This document shows positions 2,055 to 46,269 of a DNA stretch of 64,000 bases, one piece after another (within the stretch, counting starts at the first letter, position 1; every line of letters starts with the position of its first letter). Made by a program: the position numbers and the translations under genes. Origin of the DNA: Candidatus Woesearchaeota archaeon (GTDB lineage: Archaea; Nanobdellota; Nanobdellia; Woesearchaeales; ARS49); assembly GCA_014729505.1 (NCBI GenBank), contig WJJS01000001.1:12938-76937 (forward strand). Reading direction: 5' to 3'. Under the pieces are notes generated by a model, which worked only from the letters and a program-made list of their open reading frames with translations, was not told where the DNA came from and did not search any database.

Positions 2055-3866
2055 TTATAGATTACTGCGCTCAAGAGCAAGATTATGCGCTTTGATATAA
2101 TTCTCAACAAAATGCTTCCAATCCGCAGTCTCGGCGAGCTTTTTTGCACTAATGCGGTTCTCTGTACGTTCATGCTTTGACAAATGAGCAAAATCGTACA
2201 TGACATCAGTGAGTTTTTGAATCGCCAACTCCTCAGATTGTTTACGAGGAATCACAAAAATACCAGGAAAACGACCCTTAGCCTTGTCCTGCACGTACGA
2301 GCCAAAACCGGCCACGTCAGTAGTAACCGCGCTTACCCCAAGAGCACTAGTCTCAAGAGGAGTATAGCCCCAGGGTTCATAAAATGAGGGAAAGATACCG
2401 AGATTTCCGGCATTCAATGATTCTCGATACGTCAAATCCAACAAACCATCCGCACCCGTCAGATAAATCGGGTAGAACACGACCTTTACAGGATCATCCT
2501 CGTCATTAGCAAGACCTTCTTGACCAAGCATTGATAGAATAGGATCGGACTCTTCATGGTACAAATCATGAGTAGCCACCGGCGGTTTTCCCGACTGTTT
2601 TAGGCGACGAATCTTCACTTTCAAATCCTGCAACAAATCCTTATCAAAAATATTCTCCTTAGAAATTTGCTTTCCAGACACCAGCAAGTACGTTAAAGTA
2701 TTGCGTAACTCCTCGCCGAGATCATCAATATCATCCTTAATATCAAAAAAGTGAGAACGATTCTCCAACAATTCTGATTTAATGCTCTTCATACCGGCAG
2801 GAACCCAAAAGAACGTGATGATTGTCTTATTGGTTTTTTCCTTTTTGAGCCTCTCATTAAGACGGCTCAAGGACTTAATCAGCACATCAATACCCTTATC
2901 ATGAAACTCGTACCTTCCAGCGATAAAATAAATCAGCGTGTTTTCCAAATCAAACTCGTAATAAGGAAAAAAATAGTACATAAGAAACGTATGAATGCGT
3001 TGCTTAAAGATACGATGACGCACAGCAGATTCATCAAGAGTGGGAAACTTCGCAAAATCAAGACCATTTGTCACAATCACGTCGGGTTTTCTACCCAAAA
3101 ACTTCTCAGCCTCGGCACCAGTAATCGCACTAACAGTCGTAAACACATCAGCCTCACGAGCACAAATACGCTCCATCTGCACCTTTGCCCACAAGCCAGG
3201 ACCATGACGCTGCGCTTCACTTGGAGAAATAGAATCAAGCTGGTAAATATCCACTTTATTTGTTGCAAGAGTCCTGCCAAGCATAGTAGCATGAGTGGTG
3301 AATACGGATCCAAGAGGGACATTTCTGTCTTTACAATAGAGTAAAGCCGCACCAGACATCCATTCATGAGTATGCAACACTGTTTTTTTGTTGAAGATAC
3401 CGGTCAATTCCTCAACAACACGACCAACCGCCCAGGCCCACACGACAGGCTCATCAAAATCGTGATACTGCGTCGACAAAGAATCAAGCTTGAAACGCTC
3501 CCATAACAAGGTTTTTATCTCATTATTCTTATACTGGAAATCAGTATAATCAACAAGCATAACCTTAGGGGTGCCCTTAATCAACCATTGACCAGTATGC
3601 ACTTCAATGCCGACTTGTTTTAACCGTTCAAAGCAATCTTTGCACTGTTCGGGTACGGGGGTCTCCTCAAAAATACCGCGCAATTTATCAGGAAAATACG
3701 GTCCGATAAGGTAATAATTCTCATAATTCTCCTGCATAGAAGGAGCTTTAGACGTGACAACAGTGTAGATACCGCCAACTTTATTGCACACTTCCCACGA
3801 CACTTCAAAGAGAAGATCAGCACGAGGATCCATACGCTCATTCACGACTGCCGCGTATATAAACAT
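2055..3866 (-). CDS. Glycogen synthase, GT3 (eukaryote-like) family
   Basis: 603-aa ORF. The N-terminal LLFEVSWEVCNKVGGIYTVV is the hallmark of GT3 glycogen synthases. An alternative start at M12 (3833) is possible. Confidence 0.75.
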   Translation of the reverse strand: MFIYAAVVNERMDPRADLLFEVSWEVCNKVGGIYTVVTSKAPSMQENYENYYLIGPYFPDKLRGIFEETPVPEQCKDCFERLKQVGIEVHTGQWLIKGTPKVMLVDYTDFQYKNNEIKTLLWERFKLDSLSTQYHDFDEPVVWAWAVGRVVEELTGIFNKKTVLHTHEWMSGAALLYCKDRNVPLGSVFTTHATMLGRTLATNKVDIYQLDSISPSEAQRHGPGLWAKVQMERICAREADVFTTVSAITGAEAEKFLGRKPDVIVTNGLDFAKFPTLDESAVRHRIFKQRIHTFLMYYFFPYYEFDLENTLIYFIAGRYEFHDKGIDVLIKSLSRLNERLKKEKTNKTIITFFWVPAGMKSIKSELLENRSHFFDIKDDIDDLGEELRNTLTYLLVSGKQISKENIFDKDLLQDLKVKIRRLKQSGKPPVATHDLYHEESDPILSMLGQEGLANDEDDPVKVVFYPIYLTGADGLLDLTYRESLNAGNLGIFPSFYEPWGYTPLETSALGVSAVTTDVAGFGSYVQDKAKGRFPGIFVIPRKQSEELAIQKLTDVMYDFAHLSKHERTENRISAKKLAETADWKHFVENYIKAHNLALERSNL

Positions 3867-3928
3867 TTAACACTCTTTATGAGTAATAAAATATTTCTGA
3901 ACATCTTTTTGTTCATCCAAGCATCTGT

Positions 3929-6550
3929 TCAGTATTTCCTGAACAGCTTCACGATTTCGCCGAAAATCAAAACACTGGACGCTACAGCAGCAGCAATCAT
4001 CCAATCCATAAATGAAAGCGGAATCGTCTCAAAAAGAGTATTGAAAATACCAAGATGCACACTTGCAATTTGCAAACCAAAACTGAGCAACACCGCACCA
4101 ATCAACCATTTGTTAGACCATAACCCTACCGTAAAAATTGATTTCGTCTCAGAACGCTGATTAAGCACGTTAAACAACTGGAAAAGAACCAAGGTAGTAA
4201 AAGCCATCGTTTGCGCATATGTTTTATTCACCTCAGGCTCGTACCATTCAAACACAAAAAGAGTGCCAGCCATCATCAAAAGGCCAATAAACAACATAAG
4301 ACCTGCCCTGCTCTTGTTAACAATCTTTTCATCAATATCGCGAGGCTTTCGCTCCATAACTCCCGGTTCTTTAGGATCAACACTTAAACTCGTCGCAGGC
4401 AATAAATCAGTGGCAAGATTAATCCACAAAATCTGTCTTGCAGTTAACGGATCAATAAGGCCGAGAAGCGTTGCCACAAAAATAGTCAAAATCTCGCCGA
4501 CATTGCTTGATAACAAGTATATGACAAACTTCTTGATGTTATCATAAATAACGCGACCTTCTTCAACTGCACGAACAATAGTTGCAAAATTATCATCGGC
4601 AAGAATCATATCGCTGGCCTGACGAGAAACATCAGTACCAGTGATACCCATTGCAATGCCAAGATCAGCCTTCTTTAAAGCAGGAGCATCATTAGCACCG
4701 TCACCCGTCATAGCAACAATATGCCTGTTCTTACGCAGTGCATCGACAATATGCAGTTTATCCTCTGGATTAACACGGGCATAAATACTAATCTTTTCAA
4801 CATCACGCGAAAGATTGATAGACTCAAGCTCTACACCCTCAATAGCCCTGCCCTCAAGACCAATCTGTTTACCAATCGCTTTAGCAGTACCGAGATGATC
4901 GCCAGTAATCATCACCACCTTGATACCTGCAGCATTGCACGTCTTAATTGCTTTTTTAACCTCCTCTCGAGGAGGGTCAATCATGCCCTGCAACCCAATA
5001 AAGATCATGCTCTTTTCAATATCATCATGACTCAATTCATCCTTGAACTCCTTATAACAAAAACCAAGAACGCGCAAAGCCTGACTGGTAAATTCATCAT
5101 TTGTTTCAAGAATATGATCCCGATCCTCTTTAGTCAGCCGACGAACCTTTCCATCAACCAACATATGAGTACAAAAACCAAGCACCACTTCAGGAGCGCC
5201 CTTCGTATACGCCGTCTTCTTACCTTCAAAAGTGGAATGAATCGTCGTCATACACTTGCGTTCAGAACTAAAATCGATTTCATCAACGCGCGTATTATCA
5301 GAACGCACCTTGTCAAGATCAATACCTGACTTTGCTGCACTGACCAATAAAGCACCTTCAGTAGGGTCACCGACAATACTATGACGGCCCTGCTCCACAT
5401 CAAGCTGGGCATTATTGTTCAACACTCCTGCACGCAATAACGTATCAAGAGAGGATGTCTCTTTGGAAAAATCACCCTTTGGTTCATAACCAGAACCAGT
5501 TACCTGAACCACCTGTCCATCAACATACAGTTTTTTAACAGTCATCTCGTTATGCGTCAGCGTACCCGTTTTATCGGTACAAATCACCGTACACGCGCCC
5601 AGCGTTTCAACACTTGGAAGCTTGCGCATCAACGCCTTCTTCTTAGCCATGCGCTGCACGCCAAGAGCAAAAGCAATAGTAACCACTGCAGGCAAACCCT
5701 CAGGAATAGCAGCGACTGCAAGGGCAACAGCCTTTTCAAACACTTCAAGAAGATTTTTACCCAACAACACATCAACGCCAATCATCACCATAGCGATCAA
5801 GACCACCGCAGCAGTAAGCTGATATGCCAGTTTCTTGAGATCCTTTTGTATCGGCGTGGGCTCGCTTTTTGTCTTTTTGAGCATAGTTGCAATCTTACCG
5901 ATCTCAGTACGCATGCCAGTAGAAGTGACAACCGCCTTGCCGTGACCGGCAGTAACTGTCGTGCCAGAAAACACCATATTCTTCTGATCACCAATAGACA
6001 AACGATCAGCAATTCTCTTCACATCCTTTTTAACAGGAACAGATTCCCCGGTCAAAGCCGCTTCCTGCGTTTGCACATTCACCGCATCAATAAGACGAGC
6101 ATCTGCAGGCACAATATTACCTGTCTCCAGCACAATAATATCGCCCTTCACCACTTCTTCAGCAGGAATTTCGCGCCGACGACCATCACGAATAACAATG
6201 GCCTTAGGACTCACCATCTTACGCAATGCTTCAATAGATTCCTCGGCCTTATACTCCTGCCAAAAACCAAACAACGCATTAGCAATAACAACAATTGTAA
6301 TAACGTAAAAATCAATAAACTCTTGTAAAAACAAAGAAATACCCATCGCTGCCAAGAGAATCCAGACAAGAGGACTTGTAAACTGATGCAAGAAGATCAC
6401 AAACGGACTTATCTTCTTTTCACGCTCAAGAGCATTTTTACCAAACTTTTGCAAACGCTCCTTAGCCTGAGATTGTGATAATCCTTCCTTAGAAGAAGCA
6501 ACCTTATCAAATACCTTCTCCAAAGGCAGTTGATACCACTCTTTTTCCAT
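3929..6550 (-). CDS. P-type cation-transporting ATPase, type IIA (Ca2+ pump, PacL/SERCA-like)
   Basis: 873-aa ORF with ALTGESVPV (TGES), [10 protein letters not shown] phosphorylation site, MITGDH and [20 protein letters not shown]. Confidence 0.9.
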
Positions 6551-17605: not shown

Positions 17606-17700
17606 GGGCCGGTAGCTCAACCTGGTAGAGTGCTCCGTTGCGATGCTTTCGCCCATCGACAGCGAGGTCCGATCTCACTTGCGTGAGATCCGACAGTTTT
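17606..17700 (+). ncRNA. Truncated tRNA-Ala 5' copy (35 nt, positions 1-34) fused to a conserved two-hairpin element, then a T4 run
   Basis: 17606-17640 is identical to 17730-17764. 17641-17696 holds CGATG-N8-CATCG and GTCCGATCTCAC-TTGC-GTGAGATCCGAC. The element recurs at 20047-20108 and partly at 22438-22462. An A/T-rich TATA-like box lies at 17573-17580. Confidence 0.6.
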
Positions 17701-17857: not shown

Positions 17858-17879
17858 AGAGGCTGCGGGTTCAAATCCC
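17858..17879 (+). repeat. Orphan internal tRNA-Ala fragment (positions about 42-63)
   Basis: AGAGGCTGCGGGTTCAAATCCC is identical to 17772-17793 of the intact gene, and the flanks differ. It is followed by the hairpin GAAACTGC-TCGC-GCAGTTTC and a T6 run. Confidence 0.7.
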
Positions 17880-20032: not shown

Positions 20033-20108
20033 GGTGGCGGAGTGGCATATTCCGATGTTTTCCGCCATCGACACGGAGGTCCGATCTCGCTTGCGCGAGA
20101 TCCGACGG
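20033..20108 (+). ncRNA. Truncated tRNA-Met 5' copy (14 nt) fused to the conserved two-hairpin element
   Basis: GGTGGCGGAGTGGC (20033-20046) repeats 20133-20146. The element at 20047-20108 has hairpins CGATG-N8-CATCG and GTCCGATCTCGC-TTGC-GCGAGATCCGAC. Confidence 0.6.
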
Positions 20109-20135: not shown

Positions 20136-20253
20136 GGCGGAGTGGCTTAGCCTGGTTAGAGCACCGCGCTCATAGGTCATACCTTTGAGCACTGAGCTTT
20201 CGAGCTATGACGAAGAAACGCGGGGGTCACGAGTTCAAATCTCGTCTCCGCCA
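20136..20253 (+). tRNA. tRNA-Met/Ile2-type (anticodon CAT) with a 43-nt canonical intron (37/38)
   Basis: Acceptor GGCGGAG/CTCCGCC, anticodon arm CCGCG-CTCATA[intron]A-CGCGG, T arm ACGAG-TTCAAAT-CTCGT, discriminator A, T6 run after. G1:C72 argues against an initiator. Confidence 0.8.
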
Positions 20254-21232: not shown

Positions 21233-21293
21233 GTCTCGTCTTTTTCTTTTTCTTTTCATAACATTTTTAAGGAGTATATTTGACTTGCAGATC

Positions 21294-22355
21294 ATGGTTT
21301 ATTCGCTAGTCAGACCGCTGCTTTTTCGCATGGACGCAGAAAAAGTACATCATCGCCTCGTCAGGTTAGGAACGATGCTCCAACAAGTTCCCCTCGTCTT
21401 GCCGGTGCTTCGCAGTATCTTCACGTATCAGCATCCCGCACTACACGTACAAGTGGACGGCGTAGCGTATGAAAACCCGATAGGGTTAGCAGCAGGTTTT
21501 GACAAAAACGGCGAAATACCTCGATTTATGAGCAGTTTTGGTTTTGGACACGTAGAAATAGGCTCTGTGACAAGTAAACAACACACAGGCAATCCAAAAC
21601 CGCGAGTGCATCGCGTAATAGAAGAACAAGCATTAGTTATCAATTATGGACTAGCAAATCACGGTGCTGCAACAGTAAAACGACGAATAGCAGCGTATGA
21701 TGAAAAGATGCCTATTGGAATTAGCATCGCAAAGACACCCCGCGTAGGAGGAGAACAAGGGATACGCGATTACGCACAATCATTTAGAGATCTATCCATG
21801 CATGGAACGTATACGACGATAAACATCAGTTGTCCAAATGTGGCAGACGGAGAAACGTATGGAGAGAATCCCCGATTATTGCGATCTTTATTGCAAACAC
21901 TCTCAAAAGAAAAAATCGTCTCACCCGTATATCTCAAACTCAAACCAGATTATTCGCACAAACAAATCGATGACATACTCGAGGTTATCAATTCGTTTCC
22001 GTTTGTAAAAGGAGTAATCATCGGCAATCTCACAAAAGAACGAAAAGGGGCAGTCGCGAAAAGAACAGAGTCGGGCGGTATCAGCGGAAAACCAACTAGA
22101 AACAAAAGCACAGCATTAATACGATACGTCTACAAGAAAACAAATGGTCAACTCACCATTATTGGGTGCGGCGGTATCTTTACTGCCCAAGACGCGTATG
22201 ACAAAATAACATCCGGAGCAAGCATGTTACAACTCATAACGGGCATGATCTATTTAGGACCTAGCACCATAAGAAACATCAATAAAGGGCTTGTTACACT
22301 GCTCGAACAAGACGGATTTAAAAGCATCACCGAAGCAACAGGTTCGCGAGCGTGA
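21294..22355 (+). CDS. pyrD: Dihydroorotate dehydrogenase (class-2-like architecture)
   Basis: NPIGLAAGFDKNGE, GFGHVEIGSVT, GNPKPRVHR, INISCPN and IIGCGGI. I use the ATG at 21294 rather than the TTG at 21285. Confidence 0.85.
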   Translation: MVYSLVRPLLFRMDAEKVHHRLVRLGTMLQQVPLVLPVLRSIFTYQHPALHVQVDGVAYENPIGLAAGFDKNGEIPRFMSSFGFGHVEIGSVTSKQHTGNPKPRVHRVIEEQALVINYGLANHGAATVKRRIAAYDEKMPIGISIAKTPRVGGEQGIRDYAQSFRDLSMHGTYTTINISCPNVADGETYGENPRLLRSLLQTLSKEKIVSPVYLKLKPDYSHKQIDDILEVINSFPFVKGVIIGNLTKERKGAVAKRTESGGISGKPTRNKSTALIRYVYKKTNGQLTIIGCGGIFTAQDAYDKITSGASMLQLITGMIYLGPSTIRNINKGLVTLLEQDGFKSITEATGSRA

Positions 22356-22413
22356 AAGAAAACCACGTTCAAATCCGTAAACTTCTTAACTGGGGCATTT
22401 TATGTGCATATAT

Positions 22414-22462
22414 GCCGACGTCGCATACTCTGCGTATCGATGTTTTCCGCCATCGACACGGA
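22414..22462 (+). repeat. Truncated tRNA-Ser 5' copy (14 nt) followed by a partial copy of the conserved element
   Basis: GCCGACGTCGCATA matches the first 14 nt of the tRNA-Ser at 22756. 22438-22462 (CGATGTTTTCCGCCATCGACACGGA) is identical to 20053-20077. The second hairpin is absent. Confidence 0.6.
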
Positions 22463-22539
22463 CGCGCGGCATTCGCTATTGCTCAGCCCCGCAAGACACA
22501 AATCTTAAAAGGCAGTTCCTTTGTTACTCACTTATTCTT

Positions 22540-22718
22540 GCCGACGTCGCATAATCTGGTACGCTAAAAAACGCATTAGCGTTTTTGGCGCGCCGAAAAG
22601 CTTTGCTTTTCTCGCGTTGCGCCGGTCTTGAAAACCGGTTCCCTTGGGTGCTCGAAAATCTGCGATTTTCGGCACGTACAAAAGCTGACGCTTTTGTCCG
22701 TATCCCGTTTCAAATCCG
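22540..22718 (+). pseudogene. tRNA-Ser(TGA)-like copy with two large insertions/introns and no 3' acceptor strand
   Basis: Matches 22756-22818 except for a 55-nt insertion in the D loop (22562-22616) and a 52-nt insertion at the variable-arm/T-stem junction (22650-22701). The T arm is degenerate (CCCGT) and the sequence diverges after AAATCCG. Confidence 0.55.
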
Positions 22719-22755
22719 TAAACTTCTTAACTAGTGGCATTTCATGCGCATATAT

Positions 22756-22837
22756 GCCGACGTCGCATAATCTGGTATTGCGCCGGTCTTGAAAACCGGT
22801 TCCCTTGGGTATCCCGGTTCAAATCCGGGCGTCGGCG
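22756..22837 (+). tRNA. tRNA-Ser (anticodon TGA), no intron
   Basis: Acceptor GCCGACG/CGTCGGC, anticodon arm CCGGT-CTTGAAA-ACCGG, long variable arm TTCCCTTGGGTAT, T arm CCCGG-TTCAAAT-CCGGG, discriminator G. Confidence 0.85.
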
Positions 22838-22891
22838 TTTCTATGACGCGAAAGCGTCATCCCATTTTTGAAGTAGTGATTTGAACCGGGG
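22833..22891. repeat. 59-nt direct repeat, left copy (starts in the last 5 nt of tRNA-Ser)
   Basis: CGGCGTTTCTATGACGCGAAAGCGTCATCCCATTTTTGAAGTAGTGATTTGAACCGGGG is identical to 23751-23809. Confidence 0.9.
22843..22869 (+). terminator. Hairpin ATGACGC-GAAA-GCGTCAT plus T5 run after tRNA-Ser
   Basis: Perfect 7-bp stem and T-run. It lies inside the 59-nt direct repeat, so it recurs at 23761-23787. Confidence 0.5.
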
Positions 22892-23068
22892 CCAGTCAAG
22901 CTTTGCTTGACGTTGTCCTGGTTTCAAATCCGGGCGTCGGCGTTGTGGGCGCGTTAGCGCTCTTTTTTGTTGTTGTGATTTGAACCGGGGCCAGTCAAGC
23001 TTTGCTTGACGTTGTCCTGGTTTCAAATCCGGGTGTCGGCGTTGTGGGCGCGTTAGCGCTCTTTTTTT
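22876..23068 (+). repeat. Two tandem 99-nt units, each holding an inverted T-arm copy, a hairpin, a tRNA-Ser 3'-end-like segment and a hairpin + T-run
   Basis: Units start at 22876 and 22975, with one mismatch in about 90 nt. Each contains GATTTGAACCGGGG (reverse complement of the T arm) and CCTGGTTTCAAATCCGGG(C/T)GTCGGCG. Confidence 0.85.
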
Positions 23069-23135
23069 GATTGCTGCATCATTTCGAATCTAAACCATAA
23101 CCTTTATAAACTATGGCCACTATAGTAACTATAGT

Positions 23136-23336
23136 ATGCCAACAACTATCCAACTCAGCAAAGAAACCAAGAAGCTAATAAGCACGTTTGGTTCCAAAGA
23201 AGATACTTACGACACGATAATTAGAAGACTGTACAAATTAGCTGTTAAGGAGCAACTGAAAGAATTCTTGCTCTCATCAGAAGGAACAATGCCGATAGAT
23301 GAGGCGATTAAGAAAGCCAAGAAAAAATGGCAATAG
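23136..23336 (+). CDS. Putative type II antitoxin (archaeal VapB/DUF217-like)
   Basis: 66-aa ORF. TIQLSKETKKLISTFGSKEDTYDTIIRRL matches the short archaeal antitoxin pattern. It overlaps the downstream gene by 10 nt. Confidence 0.5.
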   Translation: MPTTIQLSKETKKLISTFGSKEDTYDTIIRRLYKLAVKEQLKEFLLSSEGTMPIDEAIKKAKKKWQ

Positions 23337-23668
23337 TAGAGATTACGAAAACACTCTATGAACAGATAGATCGAAAATTCAAAGGAAAAAGTGTCAAAGT
23401 ATTACAACATTTGAAATCATTAGAAGAATCGCCAAAGAAAGGAAAACTCCTAGGAACCATAGGAGGAATAGTGATTAAAGAAGTAAAGTATGAAGGTTTC
23501 AGATTTTATTTCATCACCGACGGATTCAAACTCAAATATACCTCCTCTGAAGATCTTACCGACTTACTTTTGCGGGTTGTAAGAATGTCAGATAAGAAAC
23601 ATCAGCAACAGACTATCGACGAGATCAAACAGATTCTACTAACCATCGGTGTTGAAGGTTTGACTTGA
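23327..23668 (+). CDS. Putative RelE/ParE-fold toxin
   Basis: 113-aa ORF. LKSLEESPKKGKLLGTIGGIVIKEVKYEGFRFYFITDG fits the RelE-like core pattern, and the gene is coupled to the upstream small gene. Confidence 0.45.
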   Translation: MAIVEITKTLYEQIDRKFKGKSVKVLQHLKSLEESPKKGKLLGTIGGIVIKEVKYEGFRFYFITDGFKLKYTSSEDLTDLLLRVVRMSDKKHQQQTIDEIKQILLTIGVEGLT

Positions 23669-23750
23669 TAGCCTTCCTTGGCTTGATGTAATGCAAACCG
23701 CATGCACAGGTAAAAAATAACTCAAAAGAAGCCCAGAACCAACCATACAC

Positions 23751-23809
23751 CGGCGTTTCTATGACGCGAAAGCGTCATCCCATTTTTGAAGTAGTGATTT
23801 GAACCGGGG
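23751..23809. repeat. 59-nt direct repeat, right copy
   Basis: Identical to 22833-22891. Confidence 0.9.
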
Positions 23810-23854
23810 ATCTTTGCTTGGCAGTATGCTGATGAAAATACGGCGTTTCAAGAA

Positions 23855-24286
23855 TTATATCAAACCAGTAATTGCTGCAGAGACAAAGAAAATGATGAGG
23901 AAAAAACCAAGCATAATCACATTTGCAGCGATCATGAACCCGAGCCAGACAAGACCGACAAGAGCGCCCTTACCGTAATCAACATGCAACATCCACGAAG
24001 GCAAAAGCAAATACAACGCGAGCTGTACGATCATACCAATAGCACTGATAATGATACTTGCAAACGAGCCCACATTCATAGCAAGCAATCCTATAAGAGC
24101 ACTGAACACGCCAAGAATCAGCGCAGGCCACAACGATTGCACATACGTTCGCGGCACATGAAAAATCTTCGCACTCAACCACAACAGCAAGGCACTAAGA
24201 GGAGTAAAGATAACAAAAACAACAAGAGAGACAATAAGTGTTCCAAGAAAACTCAGGTATGGCAGCTGAGGCTCAACGATCGTCAT
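23855..24286 (-). CDS. Small membrane protein (4 TM)
   Basis: 143-aa hydrophobic ORF. Confidence 0.5.
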   Translation of the reverse strand: MTIVEPQLPYLSFLGTLIVSLVVFVIFTPLSALLLWLSAKIFHVPRTYVQSLWPALILGVFSALIGLLAMNVGSFASIIISAIGMIVQLALYLLLPSWMLHVDYGKGALVGLVWLGFMIAANVIMLGFFLIIFFVSAAITGLI

Positions 24287-24382: not shown

Positions 24383-24625
24383 TCACTCGATATCCTCATC
24401 AGCTAACAACGCTGGTTCAGTAAAACCCTGCAGCATATCAAGAATCTGAATAATATAATCCTCGTCCACCTCAGTAAACTCATTACCCTGCATACTGTCA
24501 AGAAAATCCTGAAATAATTTAAAAATCTGAGCCTTTTTCATACCTTTCTCAGACAAATCAAGAACTACTTGCTGCAAAGCTTGCAGAGGGTCAGCAGAAC
24601 GAAGAGCGTTTTTTATTTGTCGCAT
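24383..24625 (-). CDS. Small acidic protein, unknown function
   Basis: 80-aa ORF whose ATG overlaps the S10 stop codon (TAATG), indicating translational coupling. Confidence 0.45.
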   Translation of the reverse strand: MRQIKNALRSADPLQALQQVVLDLSEKGMKKAQIFKLFQDFLDSMQGNEFTEVDEDYIIQILDMLQGFTEPALLADEDIE

Positions 24626-40009: not shown

Positions 40010-40324
40010 ATGGGACATACCGTATGGAGCCAACGGATGAATGCAGAGCGCATCATCACAGAACTACTTCGTTACAAGAAAGCATTGCGAAGCGAACAAC
40101 AAGCACTGTTTGACGAATTACTGAAACGATCCATGAATCATCTCGGTACCATAAGTTACGCAAACAGCATGCACACCTGGGCATTACTGCTCTTATCAAT
40201 ACTACTAGAACAAGAACAACGCATAAAGAAACTAGAACATGTGGTTAATAGATACCTATCAAAAAAAGAACAAGATCGTCGTGTGGCTGAAAACGAAAAC
40301 GACGAATATGCATCGAACCTATGA
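40010..40324 (+). CDS. Hypothetical helical protein
   Basis: 104-aa ORF, 3 nt after the previous gene. Its last 86 nt overlap the polymerase start in another frame. Confidence 0.4.
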   Translation: MGHTVWSQRMNAERIITELLRYKKALRSEQQALFDELLKRSMNHLGTISYANSMHTWALLLLSILLEQEQRIKKLEHVVNRYLSKKEQDRRVAENENDEYASNL

Positions 40325-42794
40325 GTACTCTGTCACACTCTACGCACACGAAGATGCACGAGAATTCCTTACAACGAACAAGATTGCTTTTACAGAACAA
40401 CTCAAAAAAGATCCTTTTCGCAACAAGAAACATGTTCTTGCCATAACGTTATCATGCGAACGACTCGCACCATTTGTAAGATGGTTTGAACTCGGCACCA
40501 AACACCGCATACCGCTTTACAATGCAGATATCACGCCGGAACAACGCTTTCTTTACGAGAACAAGCTAGTACCGTGCAGCAACGTGCGAGACGTTGATGG
40601 GAGACTTGTACACGTCAACGAATCCGCACCACCGCTAAGCACTGTTCATTTGCGATGCGCCACACAAGGACCTATTACACGATTAGAATACCAGGATCAC
40701 ACTATCGTAGGCGAGGAACGAGAAGTACTCGCGCATTTTACGCAACGCTTCAGACAGGACGATCCAGATGTACTACTTATGCGACGAGCATACAAAGCAG
40801 TACCACATCTCTTTGAACGGTTACGTGCGAACGGATTGCACGTGCCTTTTCATCGATGGGATGAGATACCGCTGCGCCACCGCGGCGGCAAGACACACTT
40901 CAGTTACGGAAGAGTATATTATCAAGATCACTCGTTTCAACTGCGAGGACGATTACTCGTTGACACGGCAAGCAGTGTAGGATCAACATGCTCTGTACCT
41001 GCAATCATCGAACTTGCACAGCTCACAGGCACTCGATTCCAACGCGTAGCAGCACGCAGTTTCGGTGCCTCATTTCAACTTCAACTCGTCAAAGAACTGC
41101 TCGCCCAAGATCTGCTTGTGCCATACAAGGAAAAACCCTTTGATGAACCGCTGCGCATGACAGAGTTATTCGACGCAGACAGAGCAGGACATACCTTTGA
41201 TCCTCAACTAGGATTTCACAATGATGTTGTAGCAATAGACTTCTCAAGCATGTATCCATGGATCATCCACAACTACAACATCAGCGCAGATACCATACTC
41301 ACAAAAAAAGGAAAGAAGACCAAGATTCCTGCAGTACCAATTGATGTAACCACACAATATCAAGGAGTGATACCAAAAGCAATCAAACCATTGTTAGATC
41401 GACGCATGTACTACAAAAAACATCCGACGCCGGAAAACAAACGACGAGCAATAGGACTAAAAACACTGCTCGTGACCTGTTATGGTTATCTGCGATTTCG
41501 CGAATTTAAAATGGGACTTGCCACATCACACATGGCAATTTGTTCATACGCGCGAGAACTCCTCCTACAATCAGCAACGCTTGCAGAAGAACAAGGCTTT
41601 CGCGTCATTCACGGCATCATCGATTCACTCTACATATCAAAAAAAGACATTACCACAACAGAAGTCGAAACATTTCGAAAAGAACTAGAACACATGAGCG
41701 GTATACCCGTTGCCTGCGATGGCATCTTCAAATGGATCGTGTTTCTTTCACGACGACATGACAACACTGTCGGAGTGCCGGCCCGTTATTTTGGCGCATA
41801 TAAAAATGGTGGCATTAAAGCAAGAGGTATTGAAGTACGACAATCGAGTGCGCCGCTACTTATACGACGATTCCAACAAAACGTGTTAGAAGAGCTCGCA
41901 GCGTTTTCAACGAAAAGAGCGATACAGGATCACTTGCCACAAGTCATGAAACGCGCACGAGCAGTCCTGCACGATCTGCCTGCGACGCCACGAGAAGAAC
42001 TGTGTTGCAGAATACGCATCAGTAAGACCACGTATTCTCGAAACATTCCACAACGGCAAGTGATACGCTTGTTAACACAACAAGGGAGAGACATTATCGC
42101 TGGACAGGTCATACGGTTCTGGTACAGTGCGAATGGACCGTTACTAGTCGATATGACTGGAAGGCCAGACTACAAAAAATATCGCGATTTGTTATTACGC
42201 GCAATACACTCAGTGTACCAGCCTTTCGGTTATACTACCAAACAACTACAACACCTCCTATTAGACGAATATCAAAGCGTTCTGCAAGATTTTGCGCGAC
42301 AACAGATCCGCTACGAATACGTGCCTATGAAAAAACACTATGCACAAAAACGAGGACTGTCAGAGAGAATCCTGCGACAACGACTGGAACGACAAGGATG
42401 GACGGTGTGGCGCGGCGGCAGCATACATATTACTCGTTATGAAGAACTGTATCCCAACGTACGACGAAAGTACGAATTACTCATCCGTCTGCTTGACGAT
42501 CATAAGCCAGACACAAAAGAAATACTGCAATATTATTGCATGATACAGCACGGCATGCCAGATTTTCTCTGCTACAAAAATGGACGATTCAAATTTGTTG
42601 AATGCAAATTGCAATACGAGCAATTAAGTCATCGACAAAAACGCTGCATTATGAAGCTACAAGACCTGGGATTTGATGTGGAAGTTCACAAACTCGTTGA
42701 CAAACGCACAAAAATGAGAGAGGCACTAGTTGACATGTTTACCAATTGCAAAATAGTACGAGAACGACAACTAGCCCTACTCTCAACATGGTGA
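40239..42794 (+). CDS. Family-B DNA polymerase lacking recognisable exonuclease motifs, fused to a C-terminal VRR-NUC nuclease domain
   Basis: 851-aa ORF. Pol motifs: A VAIDFSSMYPW (D334), B KTLLVTCYGYL (K408), C HGIIDSLY (D462). No DxE, NxxxFD or YxxxD at the expected sites. The C-terminus (from about aa 700) reads ERQGWTVWR...GMPDFLCYKNGRFKFVECKLQYEQLSHRQKRCIMKLQDLGFDVEVH. Confidence 0.85.
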   Translation: MWLIDTYQKKNKIVVWLKTKTTNMHRTYEYSVTLYAHEDAREFLTTNKIAFTEQLKKDPFRNKKHVLAITLSCERLAPFVRWFELGTKHRIPLYNADITPEQRFLYENKLVPCSNVRDVDGRLVHVNESAPPLSTVHLRCATQGPITRLEYQDHTIVGEEREVLAHFTQRFRQDDPDVLLMRRAYKAVPHLFERLRANGLHVPFHRWDEIPLRHRGGKTHFSYGRVYYQDHSFQLRGRLLVDTASSVGSTCSVPAIIELAQLTGTRFQRVAARSFGASFQLQLVKELLAQDLLVPYKEKPFDEPLRMTELFDADRAGHTFDPQLGFHNDVVAIDFSSMYPWIIHNYNISADTILTKKGKKTKIPAVPIDVTTQYQGVIPKAIKPLLDRRMYYKKHPTPENKRRAIGLKTLLVTCYGYLRFREFKMGLATSHMAICSYARELLLQSATLAEEQGFRVIHGIIDSLYISKKDITTTEVETFRKELEHMSGIPVACDGIFKWIVFLSRRHDNTVGVPARYFGAYKNGGIKARGIEVRQSSAPLLIRRFQQNVLEELAAFSTKRAIQDHLPQVMKRARAVLHDLPATPREELCCRIRISKTTYSRNIPQRQVIRLLTQQGRDIIAGQVIRFWYSANGPLLVDMTGRPDYKKYRDLLLRAIHSVYQPFGYTTKQLQHLLLDEYQSVLQDFARQQIRYEYVPMKKHYAQKRGLSERILRQRLERQGWTVWRGGSIHITRYEELYPNVRRKYELLIRLLDDHKPDTKEILQYYCMIQHGMPDFLCYKNGRFKFVECKLQYEQLSHRQKRCIMKLQDLGFDVEVHKLVDKRTKMREALVDMFTNCKIVRERQLALLSTW

Positions 42795-46024: not shown

Positions 46025-46106
46025 TCCCCGCCCCCGGACTCAGCGTTAACCTGCGGTTAACTGGCTGCAGAAAACACTTCGTGTTTTTGCAGTGAACCAG
46101 GAACCT
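46025..46106 (-). repeat. Partial second copy of the tRNA-Tyr 3' portion (variable loop to 3' end) with a 52-nt insertion in the T loop
   Basis: Minus strand reads AGGTTCCTGGTTCA[52 nt, two hairpins]AGTCCGGGGGCGGGGA. It is preceded by TGAACCAGG, the reverse complement of the T arm. Confidence 0.65.
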
Positions 46107-46145
46107 GGTTCAAGCCTTGTAAGATATTGTTTCCAAAAAGAAAAG

Positions 46146-46269
46146 TCCCCGCCCCCGGACTTGAACCAGGAACCTCGCGGTGACGGCTGACTCGCCTTCA
46201 CGTCTCGAGCGTTGCTCGGAATCAGTTGAGTTTCTACAGCCGCGCGCTCTACCATTGAGCTAGGCGGGG
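46146..46269 (-). tRNA. tRNA-Tyr (anticodon GTA) with a 52-nt canonical intron
   Basis: Acceptor CCCCGCC/GGCGGGG (the C1:G72 archaeal Tyr identity pair), anticodon arm CGCGG-CTGTAG[52]A-CCGCG, T arm CCTGG-TTCAAGT-CCGGG, discriminator A. Confidence 0.85.

Follow-up and report, generated by a model that had tools for sequence, protein, structure and literature searches.

A toxin-antitoxin gene pair between 59-nt direct repeats at a Woesearchaeota tRNA-Ser gene, a candidate for insertion with long target duplication

A toxin-antitoxin (TA) gene pair was found between two perfect direct repeats of 59 nucleotides (nt) at the 3' end of a tRNA-Ser(TGA) gene of Candidatus Woesearchaeota archaeon, in a stretch of 64,000 nt (contig WJJS01000001.1 of assembly GCA_014729505.1, positions 12,938 to 76,937; hereafter the window). 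We consider it moderately probable that the pair was inserted there as a cassette, with a long duplication of the target and without a mobility gene of its own. The mobile unit would measure about 0.6 kb, from just upstream of a TATA box to the stop codon of the toxin gene. Mechanism and timing are inferred and are discussed below.

The repeats (22833-22891 and 23751-23809, both read on the forward strand) are identical at 59/59 positions, with their starts 918 nt apart. The left copy opens with CGGCG (22833-22837), which are the last 5 nt of the tRNA-Ser gene; the remaining 54 nt belong to the sequence that follows the gene, its trailer, and no substantial part of the tRNA, such as T-arm or anticodon arm to 3' end, is included. 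The tRNA-Ser gene itself is intact (22756..22838, forward strand, ending at 22837/8): it was called by ARAGORN and by Rfam (tRNA, 58.5 bits), calls that differ by 1 nt (22755/6-22837/8), and an ortholog is present in the syntenic contig L179. An Rfam scan of the region matched tRNAs only. A preliminary description of this DNA, made without database searches, had reported identical repeats, the left one starting with the last 5 nt of tRNA-Ser, and both the sequence comparison and the tRNA calls agree. Both copies further contain a perfect 7-bp hairpin (ATGACGC-GAAA-GCGTCAT, confirmed by folding), a run of five T and, at the 3' end, GATTTGAACCGGG, an inverted copy of the T-arm of tRNA-Ser itself (22879-22890 in the left and 23797-23808 in the right repeat), which had been missed. 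A screen of the whole window allowing up to three mismatches gave no copies beyond these two, with 0 expected from 100 shuffles, and the exact 59-mer was absent from the 179 loci and the viral contigs in which it was looked for. Hence, as to the condition set earlier, that a generic terminator module downstream of tRNA genes would refute the cassette, the exact 59-mer is not generic, but further tRNA genes of the lineage have a trailer of the same design, with hairpin, T-run and inverted T-arm.

The duplication does not stop at the perfect repeat. The sequence at 23812..23846 (forward strand) is a diverged continuation that resembles 22901-22937, the hairpin and tRNA 3' copy that follow the left repeat (local alignment score 26; shuffles gave a mean of 14.2 with standard deviation 2.7, and 4/2000 reached at least this score). 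The sequences preceding the two 59-mers showed no significant similarity to each other. Since the sequences after the repeats are still similar and those before them are not, the duplication as a whole measures about 95-110 nt and has a sharp left edge, the perfect 59 nt being its well-preserved core. That the core is identical may be due to a recent event or to gene conversion between the copies.

Two tandem units of 99 nt make up the left arm of the insert (22865-22963 and 22964-23062, forward strand) that are 96% identical and were recognized by repeat analysis, folding and likeness to L179, where the same design is found after tRNA-Ser. Each holds a copy of the tRNA-Ser sequence from T-loop to 3' end (22923-22944, 22/22 identical; 23022-23043, 21/22) within a layout of 7-bp hairpin, tRNA 3' copy and second hairpin with T-run; an inverted T-arm, given as 22978-22989, was noted for the first unit only. 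Folding of a unit gives -41.3 kcal/mol (z = -3.9), and in this fold the T-arm half is paired with the inverted T-arm. On the other side the right arm comprises the 82 nt (23669..23750, forward strand) that separate the stop codon of the toxin gene from the right repeat, and for which no similarity to the other loci was found. Besides the gene pair, the open reading frames (ORFs) of at least 40 aa between the repeats are one of 61 aa (22841-23026, over the 99-nt units) and one of 41 aa (23625-23750), both on the reverse strand.

The two lengths suggest that an assembly artefact be considered, in which two strain variants or loci were wrongly joined: the contig is from a metagenome-assembled genome, the repeat length of 59 and the tandem period of 99 equal common de Bruijn k-mer sizes, and the default k-mer list of MEGAHIT includes both. 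We regard this as very improbable. The 99-nt units differ at 4 positions and so are no k-mer copies, for which reason the match to k-mer sizes is probably coincidence. In addition, the pair is accompanied by an intact promoter, repeat-flanked cassettes also occur in independent assemblies from other projects, and L179 independently has the same trailer design.

The gene pair consists of a candidate antitoxin of 66 aa (23136..23336) and a candidate toxin of 113 aa (23327..23668), small co-oriented ORFs on the forward strand that overlap by 10 nt with the antitoxin first, the gene order of type II TA modules; the overlapping pair with these protein lengths, as well as the two 99-nt units, was already given in the preliminary description. 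The promoter/operator region (23086..23135, forward strand) contains the TATA box TTTATAAA at 23103-23110 and three operator-like repeats at 9-nt spacing (ACTATGG at 23110-23116, ACTATAG at 23119-23125 and ACTATAG at 23128-23134), which end 1 nt before the ATG. The same TATA box with two to four ACTATAG repeats, likewise 9-nt-spaced, was seen upstream of the pair in every locus where this region was read.

Homologues of the toxin form 1527 clusters, nearly all of 112-113 aa, 64-78% identical and all from Woesearchaeota/Nanoarchaeota, with invariant motifs that include FRF.F..D and VRMSDK.HQQ; a phmmer screen of 1.8 billion representatives retrieved this compact family only. The toxin and 24 homologues had no match in Pfam, NCBIfam or PADLOC at E-values up to 1, there was none among PDB sequences, PHROGs and PADLOC gave nothing meaningful for the toxin, and it does not belong to the RelE, ParE or HigB sequence profiles. 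Its AlphaFold model, with a predicted local distance difference test (pLDDT) score of 68, runs from one strand through a pair of helices and four further strands to two additional helices at the C-terminus, which corresponds to a RelE/ParE fold in a model of moderate confidence. Thus the RelE/ParE likeness first proposed for the toxin stands as a predicted fold, but finds no counterpart in the sequence databases named. The antitoxin family comprises 448 homologous clusters with 68-85% identity. Its single Pfam match is DUF7557, below threshold at 21.7 bits against a cutoff of 25 and likewise weak for 25 homologues; no match to PF02697 (DUF217) was obtained at E-values up to 1, and the VapB/DUF217-like label originally given is therefore dropped. 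A ribbon-helix-helix N-terminus is probable, and the monomer model gave weak matches only, ribbon-helix-helix antitoxins among them.

Because of the predicted fold, the gene layout and the TATA box with operator-like repeats, the two genes fit an autoregulated type II TA module, as had been surmised. The 66-aa protein would then probably repress the module as a ribbon-helix-helix protein, binding to the three ACTATAG repeats over its own promoter, and would neutralize the toxin, while the 113-aa protein is most likely an RNase-type growth inhibitor with a RelE/ParE-type fold. If true, this is an unannotated TA family, with a DUF7557-like antitoxin and a toxin of predicted RelE fold, whose conservation is among the highest seen for small gene pairs in Woesearchaeota.

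Homology searches indicate that the pair is present in most Woesearchaeota and is a very widespread family. Antitoxin and toxin were linked in 86/86 loci that had both gene regions on the contig. The genes adjoining the pair are unrelated between loci: for the 60 loci with enough flank, the upstream flanks fell into 49 unrelated clusters and the downstream flanks into 47. The TA proteins are 64-85% identical across Woesearchaeota, as against 56% at best for the product of the neighbouring gene pyrD, and in the closest relative, L088 (toxin 78% identical), DNA homology is confined to 23086-23631, that is promoter and most of the pair.

Direct repeats of local target sequence, 15-33 nt long, tightly bracket the pair in at least seven contexts. 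When the 1.5 kb to the left and right of the pair were compared, the longest exact repeat measured 8-14 nt in most loci; the outliers were the window (59 nt), L173 (23), L098/L099 (22), L118 (21), L115 (20) and L144 (17), and with mismatches allowed L159, L163 and L172 join the repeat-flanked loci, the scores being 20-27 with a shuffle maximum of 16. What is repeated varies by locus and includes gene starts, gene ends and the end of a tRNA-Val gene. For L099 it is the beginning of the P-loop kinase gene that lies downstream, of which an orphaned N-terminal fragment stays upstream of the cassette; for L159 and L166, the place where the stop of one gene overlaps the start of another; for L163 and L172, which are orthologous insertions with decaying repeats, the 3' end of the gene upstream; and for L173, the 3' end of tRNA-Val. 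At the tightest loci 47-60 nt separate the end of the left repeat from the ATG, and the right repeat follows the stop codon at a distance of 0-5 nt. The earlier idea of a miniature integrated cassette finds support in so far as the same pair is closely flanked by duplicated local sequence in other genomes. Targeting specific for tRNA genes was considered and rejected, since few of the 86 loci have a tRNA gene within less than 1 kb and the identities of these tRNAs differ. As a separate observation, the flanking 20-mer of L115, CCACTTAGTAGCAATCGTTC, occurs three times in that contig (236, 3572 and 4344), two copies being preceded by TTTATAAA...TTTACTC, as if a small RNA gene with its own promoter began there; here the insertion may have taken place between pre-existing repeats.

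L179 was the sole syntenic relative found. It was identified as the contig with the closest homologue in a pyrD protein search (56% identical), whereas a pyrD scan of genome contigs gave 43% identity at best and no close relative, and an exact look-up of the toxin sequence in the contig index gave no match. L179 shares, in this order, genes for HAD and HIT proteins, an intron-containing tRNA-Met, a 116-aa protein, pyrD, tRNA-Ser(TGA), S10 (91%), EF-1alpha (86%) and EF-2. The TA pair is absent from this contig, where a Zn-ribbon ORF and a sulfatase gene take its place. Its tRNA-Ser has one trailer of the same design, in the order hairpin, T-rich stretch, inverted T-arm, direct T-arm half, hairpin-rich insert of about 50 nt and 3'-end copy, the inverted T-arm matching the T-arm of L179 itself; the 59-mer could not be aligned there. 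Because this trailer shares the design without the TA pair, the comparison suggests that the trailer, and hence the 59-mer, is native host sequence and that the TA-bearing segment is the variable part.

A second explanation would make the pair an old neighbour of tRNA-Ser and the S10-EF1a operon and would ascribe the 59-nt repeat to local recombination, be it unequal crossing-over or gene conversion among trailer units. This is unlikely in our opinion, yet several observations fit it. In L088 the pair starts about 57 nt past tRNA-Ser(GGA), and in L127 (toxin 60% and EF-1alpha 73% identical) it lies at 895-1421, about 1.1 kb from S10-EF1a at 2504-4104 with unrelated genes between. GC content at third codon positions (GC3) of the two TA genes is 0.34 and 0.45, within the host range of 0.39 +/- 0.04; recombination in the region is evident from the 99-nt tandem units and other fragments; and a perfect core with a diverged extension suggests gene conversion. 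On the other hand, the pair is missing from L179, the only syntenic relative, and its closer TA relatives (74-78% identical) have unrelated surroundings; the duplication has a sharp boundary on the left, adjoining the cassette arm, and clear target duplications surround the same pair at other loci. For the position of the pair in L127 a hot spot, an ancient residence and mere coincidence all come into question.

No integrase, transposase, reverse transcriptase or Cas1 domain was detected in 30 scanned ORFs of the window, and no integrase gene was seen among the ORFs between the repeats, as the preliminary description had stated; the 61-aa and 41-aa reverse ORFs lay outside the family scan. This bears on a third explanation, namely that the locus is what deletions left of a site-specific element: a virus or plasmid would have integrated at the 3' end and trailer of tRNA-Ser by means of its tyrosine or serine integrase, with the 59 nt as attachment core, and the addiction module would be all that survived. 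The 59-nt repeat does overlap the tRNA 3' end, T-arm and inverted copies make palindrome-like sites of the kind used by recombinases, what follows tRNA-Ser is different in the window and in L179, as would be seen at an integration hot spot, and archaeal tRNA fragments left by inserted elements are documented (PMC3293823). Nevertheless the tRNA part of the repeat is 5/59 nt, an integrase is found neither between the repeats nor in the scanned ORFs, and the pair is absent from the viral contig collection. Moreover, the repeats elsewhere are mostly not tRNA sequence and the arms can shrink to about 56 nt (left) and 0-5 nt (right), which would be a rare outcome of independent decay of large elements. 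We therefore judge the remnant of a larger tRNA-integrating element, put forward earlier as the second possibility, to be improbable, and insertion with long target duplication is the best reading in comparison with a decayed tRNA-specific integrase island.

The 80-aa ORF beside S10 (24383-24625, minus strand) gave a very weak match to Integrase_2, whose E-value of 0.036 is far from passing the cutoff; since its C-terminus is kept as a 36-aa ORF in L179, this ORF probably does not derive from an integrase. A viral link through the 20-mer at the tRNA-Ser 3' end was rejected as coincidental: only two viral contigs matched, the IMG/VR contigs L177 and L178, which are arrays of 22-23 tRNA genes whose tRNA-Ser(GGA) shares the 20-nt 3' end with that of the window, probably by coincidental conservation.

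Under insertion with target duplication, a cassette-bearing DNA segment would have entered the trailer of tRNA-Ser(TGA). It would have brought about 200 nt of tRNA-Ser-3'-like units on its left, probably from a donor like L088; the resemblance of the left arm of the window to the L088 arrangement suggests a donor site next to a tRNA-Ser gene. The duplicated target would comprise the last 5 nt of the tRNA, 54 nt of trailer and about 35 nt that have since diverged, and could have arisen through a widely staggered, filled-in break or through a switch of template during replication. A 16-nt identity common to the trailers, GTGATTTGAACCGGGG, possibly helped the insertion or guided the left junction. 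Once in place, the direct repeats could permit loss of the segment by recombination, against which post-segregational killing by the TA pair would select. As for timing, the insertion may date far back, gene conversion having preserved the identity of the 59-nt core, because of the host-like GC3, the pair near S10-EF1a in L127 and the diverged extension of the duplication; it may also be a recent move of the cassette within the genome. The recent event initially proposed from the perfect identity, with ongoing recombination as the alternative, is accordingly uncertain. Low GC content of the cassette was rejected as a sign of foreign origin, GC3 being host-like, and the TA region has a GC value a few points under that of the host in every checked genome except L127.

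Several points weigh against an insertion. L179, the sole empty-site comparison, is distant (pyrD 56%, EF-1alpha 86%), and its trailer is too diverged for a base-by-base alignment with the 59-mer. The pair near S10-EF1a in L127 could mean long residence at the site, and a recent foreign origin is unsupported by GC3. About 50 of some 60 loci have no recognizable flanking repeat, and the region of the window is full of tRNA-derived repeats, among which local recombination could make direct repeats without insertion. The TA pair was absent from the viral contig collection, so that no vector was identified. Finally, moderate confidence also applies to the toxin model itself, for which the Foldseek matches were not significant.

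The tRNA genes of the window show an architecture of their own. All 4/4 (Ala, intron-containing Met/CAT, Ser and Tyr) have partial copies of themselves within about 150 nt (17606-17640, 17858-17879, 20033-20046, 46025-46040 and 46093-46115, besides those of tRNA-Ser), as have 2/2 in L179 (1942-1960 and about 4160-4255 of that contig); at tRNAs called in the other Woesearchaeota loci no partial self-copies of at least 13 exact nt were found. Copies of tRNA 3' ends lie about 94-128 nt downstream, each with its own T-run. Upstream of tRNA-Ser (22368..22755, forward strand) the promoter and tRNA 5' end are duplicated over 66 nt (22368-22432 and 22709-22774, 92% identical), and fragments of the gene occur at 22414-22435, 22539-22561, 22617-22649 and 22700-22718. 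The last three are colinear, with two hairpin-rich inserts of about 50 nt between them and the 3' acceptor strand missing; for the pieces at 22539-22718, decay of a duplicated copy seems a simpler reading than a multi-intron or split tRNA-Ser.

A hairpin element of 54 nt, here called E54, follows an orphan 5' tRNA fragment upstream of each of three genes, at 17641-17694 (tRNA-Ala), 20053-20106 (tRNA-Met) and, as a 25-nt piece, 22438-22462 (tRNA-Ser). The Ala and Met copies are 87% identical with a compensatory stem change (GATCTCAC/GTGAGATC versus GATCTCGC/GCGAGATC) and have fold z-scores of -2.3 and -2.8. E54 had no match in Rfam, and neither the hairpin core nor E54 occurred in the viral contigs. 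Its appearance is that of a small inserted element, about 86 nt long, with target duplications of 14 nt and 35 nt. Pairing of E54 with the acceptor stem of the tRNA that follows was rejected, since the tRNA-Ser copy is identical to the tRNA-Met copy.

Downstream of tRNA-Tyr (46025-46115, minus strand) there is a perfect T-arm palindrome, TGAACCAGG-TT-CCTGGTTCA, and after it a 3' tRNA copy split inside the T-loop by a 52-nt insert of two hairpins. The tRNA-Ser trailer of L179 (4160-4255) is laid out like the tRNA-Tyr trailer, the inverted copies tracking the T-arm of each tRNA itself. Fragments and trailers could be decayed products of insertion with duplication, or a functional trailer design, and the architecture bears on how archaeal tRNA genes become interrupted. 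Intron-containing tRNAs missed by ARAGORN are tRNA(CAT) at 20136-20253, with a 45-nt intron, and tRNA-Tyr at 46146-46269, also with an intron; in L088 it missed the tRNA-Ser(GGA) at 1200-1305, which carries 25 inserted nt at a non-canonical position, in the region of the D-arm, and sits just downstream of a LAGLIDADG_3 ORF (L088 494-1174).

A broader and rather doubtful idea joins these observations with the cassette. It assumes an insertion process in Woesearchaeota that makes target duplications of 15 to >60 nt by a host enzyme, by replication template switching or even by the cassette's own products, the small DNA-binding protein and a RelE-fold nuclease acting on DNA. The process would move the 0.6-kb TA cassette and, in this lineage, would also insert hairpin elements (E54) into tRNA genes, yielding the 5' and 3' tRNA fragments at the window's four tRNA genes, and tRNA introns and split tRNAs might arise by this route.

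The surroundings are those of a core chromosome: the genes that fill the window include EF-1alpha, EF-2, S10, S7, RNA polymerase subunits, thermosome and GluRS. The cassette locus is flanked by pyrD (21285-22355) on one side and on the other by a convergent block of a 143-aa membrane protein, the 80-aa ORF, S10, EF-1alpha and EF-2. The membrane protein gene (23855-24286, minus strand) has its stop codon 45 nt from the right 59-nt repeat. Farther away, an 851-aa ORF (40239-42794) combines a weak match to family-B DNA polymerases (E-value 7e-14) with a C-terminal VRR-NUC nuclease domain, an unusual fusion.

Among known TA systems the RelBE/ParDE superfamily, for instance aRelE-aRelB of Pyrococcus horikoshii (PDB 1WMI), is the one to compare. 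The toxin described here differs in lacking profile membership, in its two additional C-terminal helices and invariant VRMSDK.HQQ, and in belonging to a family that is unusually conserved (64-78%, >1,500 clusters) and uniform in length; the antitoxin is DUF7557-like and not RelB, ParD or DUF217.

Elements of the SSV and pNOB8 type in archaea resemble the locus in having direct repeats at a tRNA end and partial tRNA copies beside an intact gene. In Caldiarchaeum, for example, a 5' fragment of tRNA-Thr, a 1.8-kb recombinase element and the intact tRNA follow each other (PMC3293823). The window differs from them by lacking a recombinase, by a repeat that is nearly all trailer, by an insert of less than 1 kb and by the same cargo at targets that are not tRNA genes.

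Integron gene cassettes can carry TA modules as well, as sub-kilobase mobile units with their own promoter and bracketed by repeats, and the cassette of the window shares these three properties. It differs in that neither IntI nor a cassette array nor a shared imperfect palindrome of the attC type is present, the repeats being target-derived and locus-specific.

The closest parallel is offered by restriction-modification units, which insert with repeats of about 46 to >400 bp and without a mobility gene, some of the repeats overlapping gene 3' ends or tRNA genes (PMC2853133). The term insertion with long target duplication is traced to Nobusato et al. 2000 through its citation as reference 37 of Furuta et al. 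2010, Nucleic Acids Research (PMC2853133). In that 2010 survey, which used a repeat cutoff of 30 bp, no archaeal case passed the screen (PMC2853133). Here, too, an addiction-type pair without mobility genes lies between long repeats of variable length that consist of unique local target sequence and exceed typical transposon duplications (59 nt in the window, 15-33 nt elsewhere). The differences are that the cargo is a TA pair and the host an archaeon, and that several repeats fall below the 30-bp cutoff. The cassette is best filed as an archaeal, toxin-antitoxin variant of insertion with long target duplication. If this is true, such insertion extends from bacterial restriction-modification units to TA modules and to archaea, the spread of addiction modules as minimal selfish cassettes gains support, and the many independent insertions with readable target duplications offer a system for studying how DNA enters DPANN genomes without a recombinase.

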